A DNA stretch of 64,000 bases from an uncultured Chloroflexia bacterium (GTDB taxonomy: Bacteria; Chloroflexota; Limnocylindria; Limnocylindrales; CSP1-4), in assembly GCA_963713975.1 (NCBI GenBank), contig OY970218.1, positions 448,001 to 512,000 of the forward strand. The letters run 5' to 3'. A model generated the notes under the pieces. It was given only the letters and a program-made list of their open reading frames with translations. It did no database searches and had not been told where the DNA came from. Positions within the stretch are counted from its first letter, which is position 1, and every line of letters starts with the position of its first letter. Shown here one piece after another: positions 41,456-55,005 of the stretch. A program made the translations under genes and the position numbers.

Positions 41456-42808
41456 TCAGACGACGACCAGCCGGTCCCTGCCGGCGTCCTTGGCCTCGTA
41501 CAGGGCACGATCCGCGAGCGCGACCAGGCCATCCGGCGTCTCGACGGTGTCGCGGAAGGTCGTGGCGCCCAGGCTCACGGTCACGCTCAGCCGGCTGTCG
41601 CCGTCCTGGACGGTCGTCTCGGACACGGCGCGCCGGATCCGCTCGCCGATCTGGATGACATCCTCCCGACCGGCCCCCGGCAGCAGGACGAGGAACTCCT
41701 CGCCGCCGTAGCGGACCAGGACGTCGCCCTCGCGGACGACCCGCCGGCAGGCACCGGCGACTGCCCGCAGGACGCGGTCGCCGACCAGGTGGCCATAGGT
41801 GTCGTTGACGGCCTTGAAGTGGTCGATGTCCACCATCAGGATGCCGAATGGCGCCTCCGCGCGGACGGCTCGCGAGTACTCCTCGCGCAGACGGCCCAGC
41901 CCGAAACGGCGGTTGTAGGCGTCGGTCAACGGGTCGATGGCAGCCAGGCGCTCGAGCCGGTCGTGGGCAAGCGCGTTGTTCACGGCGAGCCCGAGATCGA
42001 TCCGCAGGTGGTCCACCAGCTCGATGTCGTCACGCTCGAAGGCGGCCGAGGTCGCGAGGACGATCACGCCCAGGGGGATGCTCTTGAACGCGACCGGGAC
42101 GACCAGGATCTCCCGGGCCGCGACCCCCACCAGGACCGAGTCCACGACCAACTCCTCGGCACCGACCCGCAGACGCTCGATCTGGCCCAGCCGGATCACA
42201 CGTCGGACGTGGTCGTTGGCGGCCAGCGTCTCTGGCGTGCGGATGCCGTGGCTCGCCAGGGGGACGAGCTCGTCGTCGCGCACGACGAGCATGGCGCCCG
42301 CGTCCGAGGCGGTGTGCTGGAGCAGGCCGTCGAGCGCCGCCGAGCCCAGGCCCTCGAGCTCGAACTCCCGCGACAGGACGCCGCTGAAATCGTGCATCGC
42401 GGTCTCCACCGCGTGGCTCTTGGCAAGGGTGCGGATCAGGCTGTTGAAGGCCCCGGCCGTGGCGCCGGCCTCATCGTCGGAGTCGACCGCCAGCGCGCAG
42501 CGCTCAGGATCGCAGCCGGTCCAGTCCTGCGTGTACACGGCGGAGGCCAGCTGTGACTCGACGCTCGTCATCGCCGTGGCGAGCGCCCGGAAGCGGCGTC
42601 CGACCACGAGCCGGGCCAGGGCGAAGTTCATGGCTCCGACGGCGAGCCCTGCTGACAGGGTTGCCGCGTAGAACATCGGTGTCATCACCGAGGCGGCCGG
42701 CAGCCCGAGCAACAGGCAGAAGGGCGGGAAGACGAGGCCGATCACGAGACCGAACCCGGTCATCCAGATCGCCAGGTCGGTGAACACGCGGTTCGTGATG
42801 CGGGGCAC
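41456..42808 (-). CDS. Membrane-bound diguanylate cyclase with GAF domain
   Basis: Two TM helices, HAMP-like linker, GAF, DPLT..YNRR, DIDHFK.VND.YGH..GD, RxxD I-site (REGD), YGGEEF. Confidence 0.92.
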   Translation of the reverse strand: MPRITNRVFTDLAIWMTGFGLVIGLVFPPFCLLLGLPAASVMTPMFYAATLSAGLAVGAMNFALARLVVGRRFRALATAMTSVESQLASAVYTQDWTGCDPERCALAVDSDDEAGATAGAFNSLIRTLAKSHAVETAMHDFSGVLSREFELEGLGSAALDGLLQHTASDAGAMLVVRDDELVPLASHGIRTPETLAANDHVRRVIRLGQIERLRVGAEELVVDSVLVGVAAREILVVPVAFKSIPLGVIVLATSAAFERDDIELVDHLRIDLGLAVNNALAHDRLERLAAIDPLTDAYNRRFGLGRLREEYSRAVRAEAPFGILMVDIDHFKAVNDTYGHLVGDRVLRAVAGACRRVVREGDVLVRYGGEEFLVLLPGAGREDVIQIGERIRRAVSETTVQDGDSRLSVTVSLGATTFRDTVETPDGLVALADRALYEAKDAGRDRLVVV

Positions 42809-42952: not shown

Positions 42953-44218
42953 TCAGGCGGACGGCAGTCCCGGGACCTCGGCCTCGTGCGCGATCAGAGC
43001 AAACCGGCGCCAAAGGACGACCACGAGCAGCGCCGACCCGATGAACCCGAACCAGAACGGCGAGGTGATCCCGAACTCGCGCGCCAGCAGCCCGCCAATC
43101 GGCGTCCCGACCACGATCCCGGCGAACACGGCGACCGTGTAGACACCGGTCACCCGTCCGAGCATCGCGTCGGGCACGGCACGCTGGCGAACCACCGTGG
43201 ACGTCGTCCCCCAGACGAATGCGTGGGCCCCGAACACGACGAAGGTCGCGAGCGCCACGGTCGCCGACGTCGTCAGCGCCAGCACGAGGTGGGTCACGGT
43301 CTCGATCATGAGGCCGACGCGCATGATGTCGCCCAGCGCAAACCGCCGCTCCAGGCGCCCGTAGGACGCCGTCCCGATGATCCCGCCCAGGGCCATCGCC
43401 GTGGTCAGCAGACCGAACCCGACGTCGCTCATGCCCAGCCGCTCCTGCGCATAGAGGACGAGCACGGACCACGCCGCCCCGAACGTGACGTTGAATGCGA
43501 AGATCGTGAGGGCCAGGGTGCGCATGGGCGGATGGGCCATGAGCCAGCGCAGGCCGTCGGCCATGTCCTTCCGGAGGCCGGCGGGCGTCCGCTCGGGCTC
43601 GGGCCCGTCCCGCGGACGGAGGACGATCCGCGACACGAGCACGGCCCCCAGCAGGAAGCACACCGAGTCCACGGCAAACGGCAGCGCCATGCCGACGGCG
43701 AACAGGAACGCGCCGACGGGTGGCATCAGCAGCTGGTTGGTCAGCAGGAACGCTCCTTGGAGCCGCGCGTTCGCGACGCCCAGATCCTCTCGCCGCACCA
43801 GGCGCGGGAGCAGGCTGCCGGTGCCCACGTCCGCGAAGGTCTCCGCTGTTCCCAGGACGAACAGCGACAGCAGGACCACCGCGATGCTCACCGAGCCGCT
43901 CACGATGGTCGCGGCGAGGACGGCCAGAACCGCGGCCCGGACCAGGTTGACCCCGGCCACGATCCGGCGGCGGTCATGGCGGTCGGCGATCGCACCCGCC
44001 GGAACCCCGAACAGCAGCTGGGGCAGGACTTGGGCCATGAGCGCCATCGAGACCAGGAGGGGGTCGCGGGTCTGCGATGCCACCAGCAGCGGCCCGGCGG
44101 CGAGCGCCACGCCATCGCCGACGTTGGTGATGACGGACGAGGCAAGGAGCCAGCGGAAGCTGCGGCCCAGCCGCGCGGGGGCAATGGTCTCGACGACGGG
44201 CGTCAGCGGGGAGGGCAC
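42953..44218 (-). CDS. MFS transporter (DHA3-like)
   Basis: About 12 TM helices, AGAIADRHDRRR motif A; start reset to GTG 44218, 7 nt after TATCCT. Confidence 0.9.
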   Translation of the reverse strand: MPSPLTPVVETIAPARLGRSFRWLLASSVITNVGDGVALAAGPLLVASQTRDPLLVSMALMAQVLPQLLFGVPAGAIADRHDRRRIVAGVNLVRAAVLAVLAATIVSGSVSIAVVLLSLFVLGTAETFADVGTGSLLPRLVRREDLGVANARLQGAFLLTNQLLMPPVGAFLFAVGMALPFAVDSVCFLLGAVLVSRIVLRPRDGPEPERTPAGLRKDMADGLRWLMAHPPMRTLALTIFAFNVTFGAAWSVLVLYAQERLGMSDVGFGLLTTAMALGGIIGTASYGRLERRFALGDIMRVGLMIETVTHLVLALTTSATVALATFVVFGAHAFVWGTTSTVVRQRAVPDAMLGRVTGVYTVAVFAGIVVGTPIGGLLAREFGITSPFWFGFIGSALLVVVLWRRFALIAHEAEVPGLPSA

Positions 44219-44256: not shown

Positions 44257-45009
44257 TCAGCGGGCCGCGACGGTGCCCTCGTGGAGCGTCACGATGCCGC
44301 CGGTCAGGCCCTGCCAGGTCACGTCCACGAGGCCCGCCTCGCCCATGATCTCCGCGATGCGCTCCGGCGCCGGGTAGGCCTGCACGCTCCGGACGAGGTA
44401 GCCGTAGGCAGCCCCCTGGCCGGCGATCCTGCCGATGATCGGGACGATCCGGTCGAACCACCAGCGCATGAAGCGGGCCAGCCTGGACCGCGGTCGCGCG
44501 ATCTCGAGGCACAGGACCCTGCCGCCGGGCCGGACGGATCGCGCCATCTCCGCAAACCCCTGCCGGTAGTCGGGCAGGTTGCGCATGCCGAAGGCGATCG
44601 TCGCGGCGTCGAAGGTGCCGTCCTCGGTCGGCAGGCTGAGCGCGTCGCCGACCACGTAGTCCAGCCCGGCCCGGCCCGCGAACCGCTGCTGCGCCACCGC
44701 GGTCATCCCCGGCGAGAGGTCCACGCCCAGCACCCGGCCGAACGGCTGCACCCGCTGGTGCAGGTCGGCCGCCACCTTGCCGGTCCCGGAGGCGACGTCC
44801 AGCGCGGCGCCACCTGGCTGCAGACGCGCGTGCGCGACCAGCCGCCTGCGCCAGCGCGGCTCCTGGAACGCGGAGATCAGGAGGTTCATCAGGTCGTAGC
44901 GGCCTGCGATCCGGTCGAACATGACCTGGACCTCCGGGGACGCGGCCGCGTTGCCGCCTCCGGTCGAGGCGCCGGACGGCGTGTGGTCGGGCGGGAGCAG
45001 GGCAGTCAT
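44257..45009 (-). CDS. menG: Demethylmenaquinone methyltransferase
   Basis: MFDRIA.RYDLMN, LDVASGTG, GDA.SLP, IAFGMRN, Y.YLV.SV..YP. Confidence 0.93.
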   Translation of the reverse strand: MTALLPPDHTPSGASTGGGNAAASPEVQVMFDRIAGRYDLMNLLISAFQEPRWRRRLVAHARLQPGGAALDVASGTGKVAADLHQRVQPFGRVLGVDLSPGMTAVAQQRFAGRAGLDYVVGDALSLPTEDGTFDAATIAFGMRNLPDYRQGFAEMARSVRPGGRVLCLEIARPRSRLARFMRWWFDRIVPIIGRIAGQGAAYGYLVRSVQAYPAPERIAEIMGEAGLVDVTWQGLTGGIVTLHEGTVAAR

Positions 45010-47213
45010 GCGGGGAGCTCCAGGGAGGATCGGACGGCGGTGGCCACGACGCCGGGCTGGGTGATGGGGGCTGGATGGGCGAGGCCCTCGAGGGTATCCC
45101 GGCGGGCCCCCGCGATGCGTGCGGCGAGGGCGTCGGCGATAGGCGCGTAGAACGGCTCGCTGGCGCCGGCGGTGAGGATCGCGACACGGGCCCGGATCCG
45201 GACCAGTCCGGCGGGGTCGAGACCGGCCATGCCGGCGTCCGCGAGGGCGCTGTCACCCTCACGTTCGAGGAAGGCCCGGGCTCGCGGCGAGAGACGGTCC
45301 CAGCCCGCGTCACCGGCGACGGCCCGCAGGAACGTCTCTGCAGCAGCGGGCGCTCCCCCATCCCGGTGGGCCCGCATCACGGCGGCAGCCAGGTCCCGGA
45401 AGCCCGCGAGCGCGCCGGGATCCGCGAGCGGCGCGTACGGCGGCTCGTACGCGACGACGGCCGTGACCCGGTCCGGGTGGCGCGCGGCGAGCTCCAGCCC
45501 AAGCACCCCTCCGAAGCTCACGCCGACGATCGCCGACCTCTCGATCCCCCGCGCGTCGAGGTAGGCGATGGCGTCCTCGACGTGGACGGCGATGTCCAGC
45601 GGACGAGGTCGGGCGAGGCGGCTCGAACCGCTGCCGCGGCGATCGAGGGCGTGGACGGTGACGTCCCCCGGCGCCACCATGGCGGCCGCCAGACGATCGA
45701 GCTGGCCCGCGGTGGAGAGGGTGCCGTGGAGGAGGAGGACCTGGATCGGACCCGAGCCGGTGACCCGCCAGCCGATGGCGTCGCCGTCGGGCCTGGCCAG
45801 CTCGCCCGCGGCCCCGCCGGCGACCAGAGCGCGGACCGCCTCGCGGCGGAGCTTGCCGCCCGGGGTCCGGGGCAGGGCACCGAGGCGGATGTATGCGGCG
45901 GGGACCTTGTACCCGGCGAGGGACATCCTCGCGTGAGTCGCGAGGGCACCATCACCGGGATCCCGCGCCCCGGGGGCAAGGACGACGGCGGCGACCGGGA
46001 CCTGGCCCCAGGTGGCGTCGGGCCGGGCGACGGCCGCGGCCTCCGCGACGGCAGGATGCTCCTCCAGGACGGCCTCGATCTCGGCCGGGCTGACGTTCTC
46101 CCCGCCTCGCACGATCCTGTCGATGCGGCGATCCACGACGTACAACCGGCCGTCGGCATCGAGACGACCGAGATCGCCGGTCCGGATGGGGTCGTCGGCC
46201 GATGCAGGGGCGCTGGCGTCACCAACGTAGCCCGAGAAGCGGGACGTGGCCTGCACGATGATCTCGCCCACCCCGTCAGATCCCTCGTCGGCGATCGCGA
46301 GATGCACCCCGGGGAGCGGCGCGCCGGCCGAGGCGGGCTGGTCCCAGGCATCCTCCGTGGCGAGCGCCGTGGCACCGGACGCGGTCTCCGACAGGCCGTA
46401 CGTGGGCACGACCGGCCATCCCGCCCTGAGTGCCCGGGTGACCAGCGCGGGCGGGATGGGGCCGCCGCCGAGCAGGACGGCCCCGAGCGTCATCGGGGGC
46501 GGCTCGGCAGGCGCGGCATCGAGCACGCGGGCCAGCTGCGCCGGCACCACCGAGACATGGCTCACGGTCGGCACCCCGCCGCGGATCGCCGCGAGCAGCG
46601 CGTCGGGGTCGTGCGGCGGCAGGATCCGGACGGGGACGCGTTGGCGGATCGCACGCCACAGCACGCCGAGGCCGGCGACGTGCGCCAGGCCCAGCGGCAG
46701 CGCCCAGCCGGTCGCCCGGGGCAGTGCCGCGAGCCACGCGTCGGCACTCGAGGAGAGCGCCCTCGCGGACAGCACGACGCCCCTGGGCCGGCCCGTTGTG
46801 CCGGAAGTGAGCACGATCGCGGCCGGGTCCTCGGGATCACGTTCGGCCAGTGAGGAAGACGGGACCGGCGTGTCCGCGGCGGCGATCCCGGCCAGGCGCA
46901 GCACGAGCGCCGGTTCCAGGAGCTCGAGCGCTGTCGCGGTCTCGCGCGCCGTCAGGCCGGCAGGGACGGGCGTCGCCACGGCTCCCGCCCGCAGGATGCC
47001 CAGCAGGGCAGCGGCATCGCGACCGCTCGACGGGCCGATGAGCGCGACCCGGTCACCGCGTCCGACGCCAGCCCCGGCGAGCGACGCCGCGACCGACGAG
47101 GCGAGCCCGTCCAGCTCGGACCAGGTCAGGACAACGCTGCCGTCGAGGATCGCCGGCTCGTCGCCGTGATCGCGGGCGTGGTCGGCCACCAGCCGGTCCG
47201 GCGACCATGTCAT
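45006..47213 (-). CDS. menE: O-succinylbenzoate-CoA ligase fused to a C-terminal alpha/beta hydrolase
   Basis: LTSGTTGRPRG, TYGLSET, TGDLG, GGENV.P.EIE, LPRT..GKL, then LLHG, DRRG.G.S, GVSFG, LAHPAP in the same frame. Confidence 0.88.
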   Translation of the reverse strand: MTWSPDRLVADHARDHGDEPAILDGSVVLTWSELDGLASSVAASLAGAGVGRGDRVALIGPSSGRDAAALLGILRAGAVATPVPAGLTARETATALELLEPALVLRLAGIAAADTPVPSSSLAERDPEDPAAIVLTSGTTGRPRGVVLSARALSSSADAWLAALPRATGWALPLGLAHVAGLGVLWRAIRQRVPVRILPPHDPDALLAAIRGGVPTVSHVSVVPAQLARVLDAAPAEPPPMTLGAVLLGGGPIPPALVTRALRAGWPVVPTYGLSETASGATALATEDAWDQPASAGAPLPGVHLAIADEGSDGVGEIIVQATSRFSGYVGDASAPASADDPIRTGDLGRLDADGRLYVVDRRIDRIVRGGENVSPAEIEAVLEEHPAVAEAAAVARPDATWGQVPVAAVVLAPGARDPGDGALATHARMSLAGYKVPAAYIRLGALPRTPGGKLRREAVRALVAGGAAGELARPDGDAIGWRVTGSGPIQVLLLHGTLSTAGQLDRLAAAMVAPGDVTVHALDRRGSGSSRLARPRPLDIAVHVEDAIAYLDARGIERSAIVGVSFGGVLGLELAARHPDRVTAVVAYEPPYAPLADPGALAGFRDLAAAVMRAHRDGGAPAAAETFLRAVAGDAGWDRLSPRARAFLEREGDSALADAGMAGLDPAGLVRIRARVAILTAGASEPFYAPIADALAARIAGARRDTLEGLAHPAPITQPGVVATAVRSSLELPA

Positions 47214-48292
47214 CGGCCCATGCGCCGGTAGCGCTCCACCGCCGCCATGTCGACCGTCACGCCCATCCGGCCCGTCCCGCGACCACCCGGTGCGCGCATC
47301 CGCCCGCCGTCGATGAGGAACGGCCGGACGATCAGGTCATCCTCGAGCAGGTCGGCCGTGGCCAGCCCGTGGTCGCGCTCGCCGGCGGGCCACCCGTCCA
47401 CGTCCGGGAGCGCCGCCGCGCAGGCGAGGCCCGCGGCAAGACCGATCCCCGTCTCGAACATGGAGCTGATCACCACGGGCACCCCATGATCCGCCGCGAG
47501 CCGCGCGATCTCCGCCACCGCCACCGGCCCGCCGACGCGCCCGGGCTTCACGACCAGCACGTCCGCCGCGCCGGCATCGAGCACCACGCGGGCCGCGGCA
47601 ACGGACGACACCGCCTCGTCGGCCGCCACCGGCGTTCCCACGCGGGCCCTGAGCCTGGCCATCTCCTCGACGGATCCCGGCGGCAGCGGCTGCTCGACGT
47701 ACTGCAGGCCGATCCCCGCCATCGCGCGCAGCCGCCGGGTCGCGGTCCGCAGGTCCCACGTCCCGTTGACGTCGAGACGGAGCGCCACGTCCTCCGGGAT
47801 CGATCCCCGGATTGCGCCCAGCCGCGCCAGCAGCGCCGCGGTGCCGTCCCGTGGCGCCGCCTTGAGCTTGAGCGTGCCGTACCCGGCCGCGACCGCCTGG
47901 ACCGCCGCCTCCACAGCGGCCTCGGGGTCCCCGGCACCGATCGTCGCGTTCACTCCGACCGTCCTGCGGGCCGACGGTTCCCCAGGGCGCCTGGCCGACA
48001 TGTCCTGCCGCGCCGCGTCCAGCGCGGCCCTGAACGCGAGACCCGCAGCCCCGGCCCGGTCAATCAGGGCCGAAGACGGCGGAAGCCCCGACGCGACGAC
48101 ATCGGTCAGCAGCGCCTCGAGAACCGGTGCATCGGCCGGATCGTCGAGGACCGCCTCGCCCCAGCCGGTGCGCCCACGGGCATTCTCCAGCCGGAGCAGC
48201 CAGGACTGTCGTGCGGACCACCTCCCCGCTGCCGTGGCGAACGGGACGCGGAACGGGACGCGGACACGGTGGATGCGCATCGAGGCGGTCAT
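47210..48292 (-). CDS. menC: O-succinylbenzoate synthase
   Basis: Enolase superfamily: GWGEA, KLK, DVNG, EQP, DEA, VVKP...GG, HGL.T. Confidence 0.9.
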   Translation of the reverse strand: MTASMRIHRVRVPFRVPFATAAGRWSARQSWLLRLENARGRTGWGEAVLDDPADAPVLEALLTDVVASGLPPSSALIDRAGAAGLAFRAALDAARQDMSARRPGEPSARRTVGVNATIGAGDPEAAVEAAVQAVAAGYGTLKLKAAPRDGTAALLARLGAIRGSIPEDVALRLDVNGTWDLRTATRRLRAMAGIGLQYVEQPLPPGSVEEMARLRARVGTPVAADEAVSSVAAARVVLDAGAADVLVVKPGRVGGPVAVAEIARLAADHGVPVVISSMFETGIGLAAGLACAAALPDVDGWPAGERDHGLATADLLEDDLIVRPFLIDGGRMRAPGGRGTGRMGVTVDMAAVERYRRMGR

Positions 48293-49251
48293 CACGCCTG
48301 AGCCCCCAGCGAGAGCCCGCTCAGCGCCAGGCCCAGGGCAAACAGCAGGGCAAATGCGAGCGAGAGCCGCGCCGTCCCCTTGAGGACTAGATTGAGCTCC
48401 CGCGGCTCCTCGAACCCCCGGACGCGGGACAGCAGCGGGCTCGCCATCGGCAGCGTCAGCATCGGCAGCAGGACGAACGGCAGCAGCGGGGCGTCGCCGC
48501 CCGTGGGTGACCAGCCCGCGAGCCAGGCGAGCACCAGCAGCGGCGGCACCACGTAGGCCACCCCGAGCAGGGACCCGAACTCGGCCTGCGTCGCCCGCTT
48601 GCCCATGACCACCGCGAGCGTCCGTTTGCCGGCTGTGGTGTCGGTGGGGATGTCGCGCAGGTTGTTGACGACCAGGATCGCCGTGATCAGGACGCCGGGG
48701 GGAACCGCTGCCACCACGAACAGTGCATCGAGCTCCAGGGCCTGGAGGTATGCGGTCCCAGCCACCGCAACCAGGCCGAAGAAGATGAACACGAACACCT
48801 CGCCCAGCGCGCGATAGCCGTACGGAAACGGACCGCCGGTGTACGCGAGGGCGGCCACGATTGCCAGCGCCCCCAGCAGCAGGAGGACGATGCCGCCCAC
48901 GTAGACGAGCCACAGGCCCACGAGGGCGGCGAGGCCGATCGTGATGACGATGGCGGCCTCGAGCTGGCGCTCGGTCACGAGGCCGGAGGCCGCCACGCGC
49001 ACCGGCCCTTGGCGATCGGGTGTGTCGGCGCCGCGCCGGTGGTCGGACAGGTCGTTCGCGAAGTTCGCCACCACCTGGAGCAGCAGCGCCACGAGCACGC
49101 AGCCCAGGGCGGTGTCCACCCTGAACGGCGCGCCGGTGGCCAGGGCGGCACCAAGGCCGACCACGACGCCCGCGACGGCGGCCGGCAGCGTGTGGGGACG
49201 AGCGGCCTGGACCCAGATCGAACGCGTCGAGGGCCGCTCCGGGGCCGTCAT
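48292..49251 (-). CDS. menA: 1,4-dihydroxy-2-naphthoate prenyltransferase
   Basis: W..AARP.TL, NFAND.SD...G.D, YTGGP.PYGY..LGE, VNNLRD..TD..AGK.TLAV. Confidence 0.94.
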   Translation of the reverse strand: MTAPERPSTRSIWVQAARPHTLPAAVAGVVVGLGAALATGAPFRVDTALGCVLVALLLQVVANFANDLSDHRRGADTPDRQGPVRVAASGLVTERQLEAAIVITIGLAALVGLWLVYVGGIVLLLLGALAIVAALAYTGGPFPYGYRALGEVFVFIFFGLVAVAGTAYLQALELDALFVVAAVPPGVLITAILVVNNLRDIPTDTTAGKRTLAVVMGKRATQAEFGSLLGVAYVVPPLLVLAWLAGWSPTGGDAPLLPFVLLPMLTLPMASPLLSRVRGFEEPRELNLVLKGTARLSLAFALLFALGLALSGLSLGAQA

Positions 49252-50081
49252 CACGGGCGCCGCGGGTACTTGCGGTAGTCGGCCGGGCGCTTCTCGAGGA
49301 ACGCACGCGAGCCCTCGTGCGCCTCGTCGGTCGTGTAGTACAGGCCGGTCGCGTTGCCCGCGAACTCCTGGAGCCCGGCCAGCCCGTCGGTGGCGACGAG
49401 GAACGCCGACTTGAGGAACCGGATCGCCGTAGGGCTCATGTCCAGGATCTCGTCGGCCCACTGCACGCCCTCGGCCTCGAGGTCGGCAAGCGGCACGACC
49501 TTGTTCACGAGGTTCATCGCCAGCGCCTCCGCGCCGGTGTACTGGCGGCACAGGAACCAGATCTCCTTGGCCTTCTTGTCGCCCACGAGCCGCGCGAGCA
49601 GCCCTACGCCGAACCCCGCGTCGAAGCTGCCGACCCTGGGCCCCACCTGGCCGAAGACCGCGTTGTCGCTGGCGATCGACATGTCGCACACGATGTGGAG
49701 CACGTGGCCGCCACCGATCGCGTACCCGTTGACGAGGGCGATGACCGGGATCGGCAGGGAGCGGATCTGGCGCTGGAGGTCAAGGACGTTGAGGCGGGCG
49801 ACGCCGTCCGTGTCGAGGTAGCCGCCCTCGTGGCTCTTGTACTTCTGGTCGCCGCCCGAGCAGAAGGCCTTGTCCCCCTCGCCGGTCAGCAGGACACAGC
49901 CGACCGAGGCGTCGTCGCGGATGCGCGCGAAGGCGTCGATCAGCTCGCGCACCGTCTGCGGCCGGAAGGCATTGCGGACCTCGGGGCGGTTGATCGTGAC
50001 CTTCGCGATCCCGGTGCCCGAGTGCTCGTAGCGGATGTCCCGGTACTCGACGACGGGTGTCCAGGCGACGGGCGTTGTCAT
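49251..50081 (-). CDS. menB: 1,4-dihydroxy-2-naphthoyl-CoA synthase (type I)
   Basis: [45 protein letters not shown]. Confidence 0.97.
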
Positions 50082-50896
50082 GCGGCGGGAACCTCCTGCA
50101 GGAAGTCGAGGGCGAGGCGGCGGAAGGCAGCGGGCTGCTCGAGGTGGGGGGTGTGGCCGGCCAGGTCGATGACCTCCAGGCGGGCGACCGGAATGCCGCG
50201 GGCGACCTGCTCCGCACGGGACCGGCCGACGGCATCGATGGCGCCGGCGACGACGAGGGTGGGGGCCGTGACCTCGGCGAGGCGGTCGTGGAGCGGCTCC
50301 ATAGAACCCTGGCCGGCACCCCGGAGGCTGGCGGCGAGACCGGCGGGCTGGTTGGCGAGCCGGATCGCGCGCTGGCGTGCCGCGGCGGCCGGGGCGAGCG
50401 AGGCCTGGCTGGCGAACACGGGCTGGCGCTCCCAGCGATCGACGAAGGCCTCGATGCCGTCCCGCTCGATGGTCGTGGCGAGGTCCTCGTCCGCGGCGCG
50501 ACGGGCAGCACGTTCCGCGTCGGTCGGCAGGCCCGCGGACGGGCTCTCGAGCACGAGGCGATGGACGGCTTCGGGGTGGGCGACGGCCATCCGGAGGGCG
50601 ATGCGGGCGCCCAGCGAGTAGCCCAGCACGCTCGCGGGCAGCGCCGATGCCCGGGCCAGGATCTCGGCCAGGTCGTCCGCGGTGCGCTCCACCGTCATCT
50701 GGTCCGGGCCTCCTGCCCCGCTGCGGCCGTGGCCCGGGAGATCCACCGTGACGAGGCGGAAGCTCCGAGCGAAGGCGCGCGCGTGGGATCCCCACGACGT
50801 CCCCCGGCCGGTGAACCCGTGGAGCAGCAGGAGTGGCCGGCCAGCGCCGCGGACGCGCACCTCCCAGCGCAGGCCGTCGATCGCGATGTCGTTCAC
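50078..50896 (-). CDS. menH: SHCHC synthase
   Basis: [22 protein letters not shown]...PVFASQ, G.G...PL, GHTPHLE. Confidence 0.92.
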
Positions 50897-52647
50897 GACA
50901 CCAGGCCCGCGAGCACGGCCGCAACCGCCGCGGAGACGTCCCGGTGAAGCTCCAGGTTCCGGGCGCGATCGGTCTGGAGCTCGAGCACGCGGACGCCGGG
51001 TCGGCCGATGGAATCCCGGATCGCGGCGTCGAGGTCTGCCGCGCCCACGACGCGGTGCTCGCCGCCGAGCGCCCTGACGATCGGCCCGCCGTCGATGCCG
51101 TGCGGCGTCCCGAACAGCTCCTCGTAGTGCTCCGGGAGGCCCGTGCCGGGCACGGCGGCCCCAGGTTGCGCCTGGGGCAGGAACGAGAAGATGCCGCCGC
51201 CGTCGTTGTTGACCAGCACGATCGTCGCCGAGAGGCCGTGGAGGCGGGCGGCAACGAGCGCGTTGAGGTCGTGGAGGAACGAGATGTCGCCCACGACCAG
51301 GGCCACCGGGCCTCCCGAGACGGCGGCGGAGCCGAGCGCGGTCGACACCACGCCGTCGATCCCGTTGGCGCCCCGGTTGGAGTGGACGGCAATCGCGCGA
51401 TCCGTGGATGGCAGCCATGCGTCGAGGTCGCGGACCGGCATGGAGCTCCCGGCCCACAGGACGCTCCGGTCCGGGAGGGCGTCGGCCAGGATGGGCCATG
51501 GCGAGCCCTCGAACGGCTCATCGAAGGCGGCGAGCCAGGCCGTCATCGCCGCGTCGGCGGCCCGATCTGCGGCGAGCCAGTCGTCTGTCCAGCCGGGCTC
51601 CGTCCGGCCGGTGGTGCTCGCGGCGGCAAGCCGGGCAGCGGTGTCGGCCGGATCCGCGTGGATGAAGGTCGCGGGCACCAGCGCGGCCTCGCGCCAGCCG
51701 GCATCCCCGTCCAGGATCACGAGCTCCGGCCGGACCCGCGCCAGCAGCTCCAGGACCGGCTTGGAGGTGGGCATGGCGCCCGTCCGCAGGACGAGCTCCG
51801 GTAGGTGCCCGTCGAGCCAGGCGCCCGGGCGGGCGAGCTGGTCGCCGCGCACGATGACGCGCGACCGATCGTGGCGACCGGTCCGCAGGCCCGACAGCGG
51901 GTCGGCGAGGATCGGGAAGCCGGTCACGCGCGCAAGGTCCGCCAGGGCCGCGGGGAGCGCCGGGTCGTCGTCGGGACCGGCGATGATCAGCCCGCGCGCC
52001 ACCGACGCCAGGCGCATCGCCAGCGCGTCGAGCGCCTCGTCGTCCAGCGTCCTGCGTCCCGCGACCACCTCCGCGAACGGGCGCGCGGGCGCGGGACCGT
52101 CCGGCGGGAGCGATGCGTCGGGCAGGAGCGGCTCGCGGAAGGGCAGGTTCACGTGCACGGGACCGGCCGGCCCCGCGCTCGCCACGGCCACCGCCCGCCC
52201 GGCGACCCACCGCCAGTGCGCGAGCGTCCGCGGATCCTCGTCGAGCAGCGGCAGCTCCGTGTACCACTTCGCGGAGCGTCCGTAGAGGTGGTCCTGGTCG
52301 ATCGTCTGGGGTGCGCCGCGGTCGCGCAGCTCCGTCGGCCGGTCCGCCGTCAGCACCACGAGCGGGACGCGGGAGAGCGACGCCTCGACGACCGCCGGTG
52401 CGAACTCCACCACGGCCGTCCCCGACGTCGCCAGGAGCACGACCGGCCGGCGCGACGTCCGGGCCATCCCCAGCGCGAAGAACCCCGCGGCGCGCTCGTC
52501 GTACAGCACCCGGACGCGGATCCGGTCCGAGGCCCGCAACGCGAGGGCGATCGGCGTGGAGCGGGACCCCGGGCAGACCACCGCTTCGCGGATGCCCGCC
52601 GCCTCAAGCTCCTCGACGAACGCCCGCAGCCCGGCCGCGCTGGTCAC
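50893..52647 (-). CDS. menD: SEPHCHC synthase
   Basis: [56 protein letters not shown]. Confidence 0.96.
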
Positions 52648-54086
52648 CGCTCGTCCTCCGGGATCCCCAGGGCGGAGATGACCGCGCGCAGCTTGATGCG
52701 CGATTCCTCCCACTCGAGATCCGGGTCCGAGTCCGCCATGATCCCGCAGCCCGCGAACAGCGTGGCGCGGGTCCGGTCCACGATCCCGCAGCGCAGCGCG
52801 ACCCACAGCTCGCCGTCGCCATCGGCTCCCAGCCAGCCCACGGGGCCCGCATACCAGCCGCGGTCGAAGCCTTCGTGCTCGTCGAGCAGGGCGAGCGCCA
52901 GGTCCCTCGGCTCGCCCCCGACGGCGGGCGTGGGGTGCAGGCGCTCCCCCAGGACGAGCAGGCCATGGGCGTCCGGGACGGTCCCCGAGATCTCGGTCAC
53001 CAGGTGCTGGACGAACCGCAGGGTCATCACGCCGGGTTCCGGGGCCACGGTCAGGCTGTCGGCCACGGGCCCGAGCAGGTCGCGGATCGAGGCGACCACG
53101 ACGGCGTGCTCCTCCCGGTCCTTCTCCGATGCCAGCAGGGCCCGGCCGAGCCGCTCGTCCTCGGCGGGGTCGGCGCCGCGGCGGATGGTCCCGGCGACCG
53201 CGACCGTGCGGAACGTGCGTCCCTGCGTGCTGACCAGGCGCTCCGGCGTCGCGCCGAGGAAGGTGCGCCCGTCGCGCCGGAACGCGTAGATGGTGCTCTC
53301 CGGGGCGCTGGCGGCCAGCCGGCGCAGGGCGTTGACCACGTCGAGCTCCACCGGCGAGCGGAGGCCGACGCGACGGGCGAGGACGACCTTGTCCAGGCGG
53401 CCCCGGCCGACGGCACCGGCGAACATCCCGACGAGGCGCCGCCAATGGTCGTGCGACGGCTGCTCGTCGACGACCGCGAGGGGTGCGAAGACGGGCATCG
53501 CGACGATGCCGTTCCTGTTCGGGGTGAGGGCCGTCGCGCGACCGGCGAGCTGGTCCCAGGTTCGCTCCAGGCGCCGCGGGTCCAGCTCGGGCGAGACGCC
53601 GGCGCCCGTGAGCGTCGCCGTGTCCCCGGTCACGCTCAGCGTCAGCTCGGGAAGGACGAGGGAGCTGGCCCCGAACGGGCCCCAGGGATCGTCCGCGTCG
53701 GGCCGCCGGCCCGTGAAGCCCATGGCTCCCAGCAGGATCGGACCGGCTCCGGCTGGCAGCGAGGCCGAGCGATCCATCTGTCCCGCGGCGATGAGCTCCC
53801 GCCAGGCTGCCTCCGCGGCGCGGAAGCGATCGGCGCCTTCGGGCTCGACCGCCCAGGCACGTCCGATCCCGACGAACGCCATGCCGTCGGACGGGCGCAT
53901 CCAGAGCGCGGCCTCGAGGCGCGCCTCCACGGCGGCCGCGTAGAGCGAGATCGGGTCGATGGCCGGCACCGGCAGCGTGGAGGCGACGAGGAGGCCGTCG
54001 GCCGAGCCATCGTCCAGGTGCCGCAGGCGCTCAGCGAGGCCGGCGTCGGACGCGTGCGAGGCGGGCACGGGCCTGACCGCCGTCAC
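52644..54086 (-). CDS. menF: Isochorismate synthase
   Basis: KVVLAR, GATPERL, AVAGT, EKDREEH, LHPTPAVGG, RGWYAGP, AGCGI..SDP..E..E. Confidence 0.94.
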   Translation of the reverse strand: MTAVRPVPASHASDAGLAERLRHLDDGSADGLLVASTLPVPAIDPISLYAAAVEARLEAALWMRPSDGMAFVGIGRAWAVEPEGADRFRAAEAAWRELIAAGQMDRSASLPAGAGPILLGAMGFTGRRPDADDPWGPFGASSLVLPELTLSVTGDTATLTGAGVSPELDPRRLERTWDQLAGRATALTPNRNGIVAMPVFAPLAVVDEQPSHDHWRRLVGMFAGAVGRGRLDKVVLARRVGLRSPVELDVVNALRRLAASAPESTIYAFRRDGRTFLGATPERLVSTQGRTFRTVAVAGTIRRGADPAEDERLGRALLASEKDREEHAVVVASIRDLLGPVADSLTVAPEPGVMTLRFVQHLVTEISGTVPDAHGLLVLGERLHPTPAVGGEPRDLALALLDEHEGFDRGWYAGPVGWLGADGDGELWVALRCGIVDRTRATLFAGCGIMADSDPDLEWEESRIKLRAVISALGIPEDER

Positions 54087-54745
54087 CGGGTGGCCTCCGG
54101 GAACACCCACTCGGGACCCGGCACCGGCACCTCGCCGATTCGCTCGGCGGGGACACCCGCGCTCCGCAGCAGGGCCGCCCGCAGGGCGGGGTACGCGTCC
54201 TCCAGTCCGGCCGCCTGGTCGGCGAGCAGCCACCGAGCGACCACCTCGTTGATGGCCCCGAACCAGGCGATGCTCGTAACCCTGGTGTCCATCGGGGGTG
54301 CGGCTCCTGCGGCCACGGCCTCGTCCAGGTAGCCCTGGATCAGCGTGGCGAAGCGTGCGTGGAGCGCGTTGGTCTCGGCCTGGAACACGCGGCCGGCGCC
54401 CATCGTGTCCAGGAATAGCAGGCGGGCCATGGTCCGGTGCCCGGCGAACGTGGCGAGGACGGCGTGGATCGCGGCCTCGGCCCTGGCCACGGGCTCGGTC
54501 TCGAGCGCGACGGCCTTCTCCACGCGACCGACCAGCTTGTCCGCGGTCGTCTGCATCAGCTCGCGGAAGATCGCTTCCTTGGTGGGGAAGTGGAAGTAGA
54601 TGCCGCCCTTGGAGGTCTCCGACGCACCCGCGATGTCGTCGACGGCCGTGTCCCGGTACCCACGCGTGGCAAAGGCCGTGAACGCGGCGTCCAGGATCCG
54701 CTCCCGGCGGGTGCGGCTCTGCTCGGAGGGGTCGGGGCGGGCCAT
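54083..54745 (-). CDS. TetR/AcrR family regulator heading the men operon
   Basis: RERILDAA...F...GY..T.VDDIA......KGGIYFHFPTKE; overlaps menF by 4 nt; GAGG RBS before ATG 54745. Confidence 0.93.
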   Translation of the reverse strand: MARPDPSEQSRTRRERILDAAFTAFATRGYRDTAVDDIAGASETSKGGIYFHFPTKEAIFRELMQTTADKLVGRVEKAVALETEPVARAEAAIHAVLATFAGHRTMARLLFLDTMGAGRVFQAETNALHARFATLIQGYLDEAVAAGAAPPMDTRVTSIAWFGAINEVVARWLLADQAAGLEDAYPALRAALLRSAGVPAERIGEVPVPGPEWVFPEATR

Positions 54746-54774
54746 CGCTGCGTCCTCTGGCGGGCATCGGGACA

Positions 54775-54796
54775 ACCGACCGACCAGTCGGTCGGT
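54775..54796. promoter_or_regulatory. Perfect 10-bp inverted repeat, putative TetR operator
   Basis: ACCGACCGAC-CA-GTCGGTCGGT, 7 nt downstream of a minus-strand TAGCAT -10 box (54804-54809). Confidence 0.8.
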
Positions 54797-55005
54797 CACG
54801 CGCATGCTACACCGGACACCGCGACAACGTGCGCGCCACGTGTATCGAGTTTCTGCCGTCGCGCCGGTCTTTCGCAGGCGGCCGTCTCCAAGGTCGAGCG
54901 TGGGCCAGCCCGTCTCGTTCGCAGGGACCCTCGCATGTCAGCGCGGAGGCCGCGAACAGTCACGCACTATGTGGCGGCAGCCGGCACGGCGCCGACCTCG
55001 CGTGC

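Follow-up and report, generated by a model that had tools for sequence, protein, structure and literature searches.

MenE fused to an α/β hydrolase in a menaquinone operon of Limnocylindria: a possible DHNA-CoA thioesterase

The window analyzed here is a 64,000-nucleotide stretch (positions 448,001 to 512,000 of contig OY970218.1, assembly GCA_963713975.1) from an uncultured Chloroflexia bacterium placed by GTDB in the class Limnocylindria (Chloroflexota; Limnocylindrales; CSP1-4); its G+C content is 70–76%, and the host genome is a single contig of 3.62 Mb. It carries a tightly coupled menaquinone (men) operon in which menE is fused to an α/β-hydrolase domain, referred to here as ABH. The MenE~ABH gene (45006..47213 of the window, minus strand) is a single open reading frame (ORF) with an ATG start that encodes 735 aa. 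Residues 1–467 (45813..47213, minus strand) form a MenE module, an o-succinylbenzoate (OSB)-CoA ligase of the ANL superfamily recognized by Pfam, NCBIfam, motifs and Foldseek, and residues 468–735 (45006..45812, minus strand) form the 268-aa ABH, delimited by Pfam and an AlphaFold2 (AF2) model, with a helical cap at approximately 599–672. It is considered very probable that the protein is bifunctional, combining a working MenE with a competent Ser566-His713-Glu590 hydrolase that is tied to menE, occurs only in Limnocylindria and acts in or around the menaquinone pathway.

A Pfam scan of the 735-aa protein places AMP-binding on residues 11–329 (177.9 bits), AMP-binding_C on residues 378–454 (66.1 bits) and Abhydrolase_1 on residues 492–593 (43.9 bits); when residues 468–735 are scanned alone, Abhydrolase_6 spans the whole domain with 54.2 bits. 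The MenE module, which thus has both AMP-binding domains, also features the P-loop SGTTGRPRG at residue 137 and the A10 lysine as Lys454, and P-loop and lysine are invariant across 44 full-length fused homologues. TIGR01923 is the top-scoring NCBIfam model for the module and aligns over residues 30–460, although its 276.2 bits lie under the curated equivalog cut-off of 330.15; Foldseek superimposes the module on the solved MenE of B. subtilis (5gtd) with a TM-score (TMt) of 0.84 at 29% identity, and the gene sits between menC and menG in the men operon. The identity of residues 1–467 as an o-succinylbenzoate-CoA ligase producing OSB-CoA within a bifunctional protein is therefore well supported as a sequence-based prediction. 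In the AF2 model of the whole protein (pLDDT 89.7, pTM 0.73) the last MenE helix (457–464) and the first ABH strand (469–473) are separated by a linker of only about 4–5 residues.

The AF2 model of ABH itself has a pLDDT of 97.7 and a pTM of 0.94, and the domain displays the features of an α/β-hydrolase serine hydrolase: the fold, a G-x-S-x-G nucleophile elbow, a late histidine and a putative acid. The nucleophile is Ser566 of G-V-S-F-G (codon 45516..45518, minus strand), the catalytic histidine is His713 of L-A-H-P-A-P (45075..45077, minus strand), and the inferred acid is Glu590 of a Y-E-P-P motif (45444..45446, minus strand), all three assigned by conservation. Ser566, Glu590 and His713 are invariant in 44 of 44 full-length fused homologues; in an alignment of mostly stand-alone ABH sequences Ser566 is kept in 14 of 14 rows and the other two are again invariant, while in a mixed alignment of 82 rows Glu590 and His713 are invariant and Ser566 is present in at least 90%. 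The position after β7, the usual site of the catalytic Asp, is occupied by a conserved Ser (Ser685 in the window protein); Glu590 lies 24 residues past the nucleophile and is for this reason placed after strand β6. Some haloalkane dehalogenases likewise have their acid after β6. The triad would accordingly be Ser566-His713-Glu590, with Glu replacing the usual Asp, and since both the catalytic residues of ABH and the MenE motifs are invariant, both halves of the protein look active. At the position before the nucleophile (45519–45521), the window protein and its closest relatives have Val, Ile, Met or Ala, and the remaining family has the usual His (GHSFGG). The structures closest to ABH by VIA-align are 3om8 (Z 28.8) and 3r0v (Z 27.6), neither of which has an assigned function; next come esterases and lactonases, including 2xua, Est816 and zearalenone lactonases (Foldseek, VIA-align), and MenH of S. 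aureus (2xmz) ranks 38th by VIA-align with a Z of 24.0. For ABH, the ESM Atlas gave no clusters other than generic "alpha/beta hydrolase" ones.

Family models separate ABH from the α/β hydrolase already known in this pathway. Like MenH, ABH has an α/β-hydrolase fold, is encoded in a men operon and carries Ser and His at equivalent positions; unlike MenH, its putative acid is a Glu after β6 rather than an Asp after β7, it has no Arg at the fourth position past the nucleophile, and a canonical MenH is encoded alongside it. The MenH of this operon features a GYSLGAR elbow (S-x-G-x-R), GAxD after β7 and the His, and matches S. aureus MenH 2xmz at 140.5 bits; the Arg and the Asp are conserved in the MenH of the lineage, whereas ABH displays GVSFGGV and GASEP. 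ABH scores 24.2 bits against the MenH model TIGR03695 (cut-off 208.55) and aligns with the operon's own MenH at a BLASTP E of 2; together with the motif differences, this rules out that ABH is a second MenH by homology. Its best NCBIfam match is a PcaD-type model at 75.6 bits (cut-off 390), and the PcaD model TIGR02427 gives 62.2 bits (cut-off 255.85) over residues 20–120 only. PcaD-type 3-oxoadipate enol-lactonases, along with 3om8 and 3r0v, are thus the best sequence-family and structure matches of ABH; unlike PcaD, ABH remains far under both cut-offs and has no pca gene context. Neither PF03061 nor PF13279, the hotdog-fold families expected of MenI, matches ABH, which has the α/β-hydrolase fold instead.

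The fusion is conserved well beyond the window. A search with the ABH region against proteins of 404–1287 aa gave 359 matches; 117 of the best 120 (database clusters at 64–83% identity) also have an AMP-binding domain, and the other three, of 407–475 aa and without an AMP-binding N-domain match, are probably truncated. Homologues at approximately 65–75% identity are labelled Candidatus Limnocylindrales or Chloroflexota by NCBI, and public annotation names the fusion proteins "alpha/beta fold hydrolase" or "O-succinylbenzoic acid-CoA ligase". Within the same genus, 20 of 24 genomes encode a homologue of at least 59% identity, many aligned over residues 1–733; the remaining four show only matches of approximately 31–38%, to other ligases. 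Among 151 sampled genomes of the class, MenE is found in 22 (E≤1e-50) and ABH in 18 (E≤1e-20); all 18 belong to the 22, ABH lies directly 3' at the menE locus each time, and it is absent from all 129 MenE-negative genomes. When 19 MenE loci were mapped, 13 proved to be fused in one frame, two had separate adjacent genes and four were without ABH; in the two split loci (L044 of genome G426 and L048 of genome G268) ABH starts near the menE stop codon. The linkage extends, in fused and split forms, across at least two families. In a phylum sample of 301 genomes, close ABH homologues (at least 44% identity) are confined to this class, and four weaker matches (30–37% identity) outside it have no men genes in the approximately 1.5 kb flanks examined. 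Among 1.84 billion representatives, 46 ABH matches at E≤1e-30 comprise fused proteins (approximately 745–800 aa) and stand-alone ones (approximately 266–309 aa). Longer proteins in the representative list consist of tandem hydrolase domains. An assembly or read-through artefact, which an earlier note on this DNA had named as a way in which the fusion might prove absent in relatives, is rejected by its conservation in homologues, same-genus genomes and the class sample.

The ABH family belongs to the class Limnocylindria of the Chloroflexota alone, and every copy found is either fused to menE or immediately 3' of it. That ABH is a lineage-specific, catalytically intact domain that travels only with menE, and has undergone several fusions, splits and losses, is firmly supported by the sequence comparisons; because it is found only in these two positions, it is considered to act in or around the menaquinone pathway.

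Other features of the men loci of relatives vary. One genome of the same genus (G015) has two full-length MenE~ABH copies, at C7:428921-431122 and C4:6263-8401, with 69% and 59% identity to the window protein, which suggests two men operons or two cassette clades. The men operon is patchy: MenE occurs in 22 of the 151 class genomes and is missing from four of the 24 same-genus genomes. The futalosine-pathway family PF02621 (MqnA/MqnD) was found in none of five genomes checked; for these two reasons, many members of the class may make no menaquinone. The split locus L048 (G268:C16:1-18000), from another family, carries menB, menA, isochorismatase, menE, ABH, menG, a short-chain dehydrogenase/reductase (SDR) gene, and genes for 3-deoxy-D-arabino-heptulosonate 7-phosphate (DAHP) synthase/chorismate mutase, 5-enolpyruvylshikimate-3-phosphate (EPSP) synthase and chorismate synthase. 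MenD and MenC were not found in this 95%-complete assembly, and its best match to the MenH model reaches 82.7 bits; either the assembly misses menFDHC, or this organism has another way of making OSB.

The operon of the window, all on the minus strand, runs in the order TetR, menF, menD, menH, menB, menA, menC, menE~ABH, menG and a major facilitator superfamily (MFS) gene. At its head stands a TetR-family regulator (54083..54805, Pfam scan), followed by menF for isochorismate synthase (52644..54086; TIGR00543, 302.3 bits against a cut-off of 224.75), menD for 2-succinyl-5-enolpyruvyl-6-hydroxy-3-cyclohexene-1-carboxylate (SEPHCHC) synthase (50893..52647; TIGR00173, 425.3 against 244.2) and the canonical menH for 2-succinyl-6-hydroxy-2,4-cyclohexadiene-1-carboxylate (SHCHC) synthase (50078..50896; TIGR03695, 219.8 against 208.55). 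These are followed by menB for 1,4-dihydroxy-2-naphthoyl-CoA (DHNA-CoA) synthase (49251..50081; NF005637, 440.4 against 380), menA for 1,4-dihydroxy-2-naphthoate (DHNA) polyprenyltransferase (48292..49254; NF004751, 318.3 against 264) and menC for o-succinylbenzoate synthase (47210..48295, start approximate), which has an MR_MLE_C domain and matches the o-succinylbenzoate synthase NCBIfam models, yet under cut-off. Downstream of the fusion lies menG/ubiE for demethylmenaquinone methyltransferase (44257..45009; TIGR01934, 200.6 against 158.35), whose ATG overlaps the stop codon of the MenE~ABH gene by 4 nt. Overlaps of 4 nt join most adjacent genes from TetR to menG, depending on the start codons chosen; those of menA and menC are ambiguous and were selected among candidates. 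Pfam and NCBIfam scores thereby bear out the operon content given in the earlier note (MenF, D, H, B, A, C, E and G) and its separate, typical MenH; the note was equally accurate on MenE running in frame into a hydrolase of about 265 aa and on the GVSFG elbow (GVSFGG at residue 564, giving Ser566) and the histidine of LAHPAP (at 711, giving His713). MenI is the only men step for which the operon has no gene.

The MFS transporter gene (42953..44218, minus strand, domain scans) follows menG after a short gap. Locus L049 likewise has a TetR gene ahead of menF, and locus L033 an MFS gene behind menG; TetR and MFS genes with a men operon may constitute a regulated module for export of a quinone or a precursor. 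Just past the MFS gene lies a GGDEF diguanylate cyclase gene (41456..42808, minus strand; 450 aa, 151 bits), and beyond it an ABC-2 transporter set, a gene of the uracil-DNA glycosylase (UDG) family and dnaJ.

To our knowledge, no other step of classical menaquinone and phylloquinone synthesis is as poorly settled as the hydrolysis of DHNA-CoA, and many lineages have no enzyme assigned to this reaction; the known DHNA-CoA thioesterases are polyphyletic hotdog proteins. As a hydrolase dedicated to men in an operon missing just the MenI step, ABH is a reasonable MenI candidate. It is tentatively proposed, as a leading guess that stands at somewhat below even probability, that ABH is an α/β-fold DHNA-CoA thioesterase non-homologous to the hotdog MenI; this guess leads because MenI is the sole missing step, a serine hydrolase suits thioester cleavage, the domain order resembles that of nonribosomal peptide synthetases (NRPS), and ABH is retained together with MenH. 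According to this proposal, MenE would load OSB onto CoA, MenB would cyclize the resulting OSB-CoA to DHNA-CoA, and Ser566 would attack the DHNA-CoA thioester, yielding DHNA for MenA and free CoA that could return to the adjoining MenE site. ABH, tethered by about five residues to the mobile C-terminal subdomain of MenE, would serve as a dedicated helper, backed up by generic hotdog thioesterases; such back-up would explain the loss of ABH in some relatives.

Several findings weigh against a role of ABH as the DHNA-CoA thioesterase, beginning with the hotdog proteins. The statement of the earlier note that there is no hotdog thioesterase holds for the operon and fails for the genome: no 4HBT-type hotdog gene lies within the 64-kb window, whereas a genome search for menI/4HBT homologues gave PF03061/PF13279 matches at approximately 1.03, 1.15 and 1.86 Mb, comprising two hotdog thioesterases outside the operon and, as the third hotdog-type match, a 30-position fragment. 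One is a YbgC/4HBT_2-type protein at approximately 1.862 Mb (PF13279, 76.0 bits) and the other a PaaI-type protein at approximately 1.031 Mb (PF03061, 40.4 bits; TIGR00369, 33.2 against a cut-off of 36.6); neither reaches an NCBIfam curated cut-off, and the PDB sequence matches of both include no DHNA-CoA hydrolase. The YbgC type is present in 85 of the 151 class genomes and in none of nine from genus g5, with or without ABH; the PaaI type is present in 135 of the 151, including nearly all MenE-bearing genomes, and could serve as MenI. Since these distributions do not track that of MenE (22 of 151), the two proteins do not appear to be dedicated MenI enzymes. A complementary distribution of ABH and hotdogs, for which the earlier note had proposed profiling the fusion against the absence of menI, was not found in these 151 genomes.

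The comparison with other Chloroflexota points the same way. The men clusters sampled from 20 other families of the phylum (n=20) contain no ABH match of at least 45 bits and no homologue of the window genome's two hotdogs (tblastn, E≤1e-3), and Pfam detects neither a thioesterase nor a hotdog domain in the ORFs scanned in and after those clusters. These scans covered 33 of 57 candidate ORFs in the first set and 26 of 41 in the second, so that a divergent hotdog in a left-out ORF would escape; the 24 omitted from the first set mostly overlap men genes placed by tblastn, and the 15 from the second are alternative-frame ORFs or already identified (MenA, MenG, other). Because these men clusters are also without a thioesterase, the MenI gap is general to the phylum rather than special to this lineage. 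In most of the clusters sampled menE is the last gene, and a gene appended at the operon's end would therefore adjoin menE by position alone. ABH is also dispensable: genomes G446 and G423, from the same family as the window and 93–95% complete in nine and four contigs, have the full menF-D-H-B-A-C-E operon with MenE terminating at its own stop codon, and neither genome contains an ABH orthologue (best 36.9–38.1 bits), while G208, a sister genome in their genus, has the fusion. One genus that keeps ABH without MenH, described below, points to a role other than MenI. The MenE and MenI steps are not consecutive, and a thioesterase tied to MenE runs the risk of futile OSB-CoA hydrolysis. ABH itself has no thioesterase-specific signature, matching only generic α/β-hydrolase models, and gives no PF00975 (Thioesterase) match with Pfam at E≤0.01; a stand-alone relative, P0124, has a weak one of 27.9 bits. 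In Foldseek and VIA-align, too, the ranking runs smoothly through generic α/β hydrolases, and no neighbour stands out. The suggestion of the earlier note that ABH fills the MenI gap is thus upheld as regards the conserved fusion, the intact catalytic motifs, the exclusive tie to menE and the distinction from MenH, and is undercut by the presence of hotdogs, the dispensability of ABH and the phylum-wide extent of the gap.

Several other functions have been weighed. At physiological pH, according to PMC6210188, OSB-CoA is unstable and gives rise to a spirodilactone; the paper also mentions an esterase postulated to recycle OSB spirodilactone in plants; no enzyme that opens this lactone was found reported in the literature. 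ABH might be a metabolite-repair lactonase that reopens the spirodilactone, a spontaneous decay product of OSB-CoA, to OSB and hands it to the adjoining MenE; lactonase and ligase would then catalyze consecutive steps, which suits a fusion in 13 of 19 loci and adjacency in two, and the dispensability seen in G446 and G423 is expected of a repair enzyme. The enol-lactonases, lactonases and esterases among the best matches of ABH are consistent with this role, but the PcaD-type likeness is generic, as the operon's true MenH scores more on the same models (110.8 bits); the ABH sequence has no lactonase-distinguishing signature, and the formation of the spirodilactone is not known to be of consequence in vivo. 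This function is regarded as rather unlikely. A proofreading or regulatory acyl-CoA thioesterase, which would hydrolyze the wrong acyl-CoAs made by MenE, or OSB-CoA when MenB is limiting, and so free CoA, would fit the very short tether to the MenE C-terminal subdomain, predicted by the model to set the hydrolase beside the thioester-forming site; the layout is reminiscent of an NRPS adenylation domain followed by a thioesterase domain, and ABH is dispensable in some relatives. MenE is not known to be error-prone, OSB-CoA hydrolysis would amount to a futile, ATP-consuming cycle, and ABH is unmatched by the type II thioesterase family; such a role seems improbable. It is also unlikely that ABH is a positional passenger, i.e., a hydrolase acting outside menaquinone ring synthesis (for example on some other lipid- or quinone-related ester) that was inserted 3' and became fused through loss of a stop codon. 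The terminal position of menE in most sampled clusters, the repeated loss of ABH and the men-free flanks of its nearest relatives outside the class agree with a passenger, but the family is never found away from menE in the 151 class genomes, the linkage is kept across at least two families whether fused or split, and the catalytic residues are strictly conserved.

The distribution of MenH bears on whether ABH could instead be an SHCHC synthase isozyme, performing MenH's elimination of pyruvate from SEPHCHC in partial redundancy with the canonical enzyme. In genus g175 (loci L047, L057, L058 and L059; four of four genomes) the order is menF-D-B-A-C-E~ABH, menH having been lost from its place between menD and menB, and the MenH model TIGR03695 has no match at E≤1e-15 in these four genomes; G446 and G423 have MenH without ABH. 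This either-or-both pattern weakly hints at overlapping function, and ABH shares its fold superfamily with MenH (2xmz), but MenH-specific similarity is nil in the model and BLASTP comparisons above, and the Arg and Asp conserved in the lineage's MenH are missing. MenH and ABH are both kept in the window and in 13 of the 19 fetched loci, with ABH identity down to approximately 43%, and this long co-retention implies a distinct job for ABH. MenH is furthermore lost without ABH elsewhere in the phylum: 109 of the 116 MenD-positive genomes of the phylum sample have a MenH match (E≤1e-25), and of the seven others, six come from family f7, where both MenH and ABH are missing (of 13 genomes, MenD in six, MenH in none, ABH in none). 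One of these six (G310) and a few genomes in the hotdog, MenD and MenH tallies are unpublished, and only counts rest on them. According to PMC6189191, bacteria that have the Men pathway often lack MenH. Duplication of MenH activity by ABH thus appears quite improbable. The f7 loci L060–L062, men clusters of high GC content, encode MenE, B, A, C, D, F and G but no MenH.

The MenE~ABH protein can be set against several known systems. Hotdog-fold DHNA-CoA thioesterases, as cited in PMC4746308, include MenI/YdiI of E. coli, the cyanobacterial Slr0204 type and plant DHNAT. Hotdog MenI enzymes carry out the step proposed for ABH, are polyphyletic and are often encoded outside men operons; ABH differs in being an α/β hydrolase with a covalent Ser nucleophile, in its fusion to MenE, and in that its activity is a prediction. 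Among the top-ranked solved chains that Foldseek matches to the full-length model, those aligned over approximately 870 columns, long enough to reach beyond the ANL module, are the NRPS termination modules EntF (5ja2), ObiF1, AB3403 and SrfA-C. As in these modules, an adenylation domain is followed by a hydrolase, the NRPS hydrolase domain cleaving a thioester made downstream of the adenylation domain; in contrast to them, the fusion has no peptidyl carrier protein (PCP), its linker is of approximately five residues, its carrier is free CoA and PF00975 is unmatched. At a root-mean-square deviation (rmsd) of approximately 24 Å, the domain orientations in the NRPS modules and in the fusion are not comparable. 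Fused men enzymes are reported in PMC6189191 and PMC4746308, namely plant PHYLLO (MenF-D-C-H) and a predicted MenY(HAD)-MenI of gut bacteria, and the same sources provide precedent for predicting non-orthologous replacement in the men pathway from fusion, clustering and phyletic pattern; unlike the window fusion, neither PHYLLO nor MenY-MenI contains MenE or an extra α/β hydrolase. A literature search found no description of a MenE-hydrolase fusion, and none was found of menaquinone synthesis in the class Limnocylindria.

ABH is a concrete candidate for a third, non-homologous type of MenI, for an OSB-spirodilactone esterase or for a substitute of MenH. The fusion makes the questions of MenI and of OSB-CoA repair directly testable, as the candidate substrates are defined compounds, and the lineage supplies natural controls in relatives with ABH fused, split or lost and in a genus without MenH. 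If ABH were the lactonase, a dead-end breakdown product of OSB-CoA would be fed straight back to the tethered MenE site; if it is the DHNA-CoA thioesterase, it would add an α/β hydrolase to the hotdog enzymes of this step.

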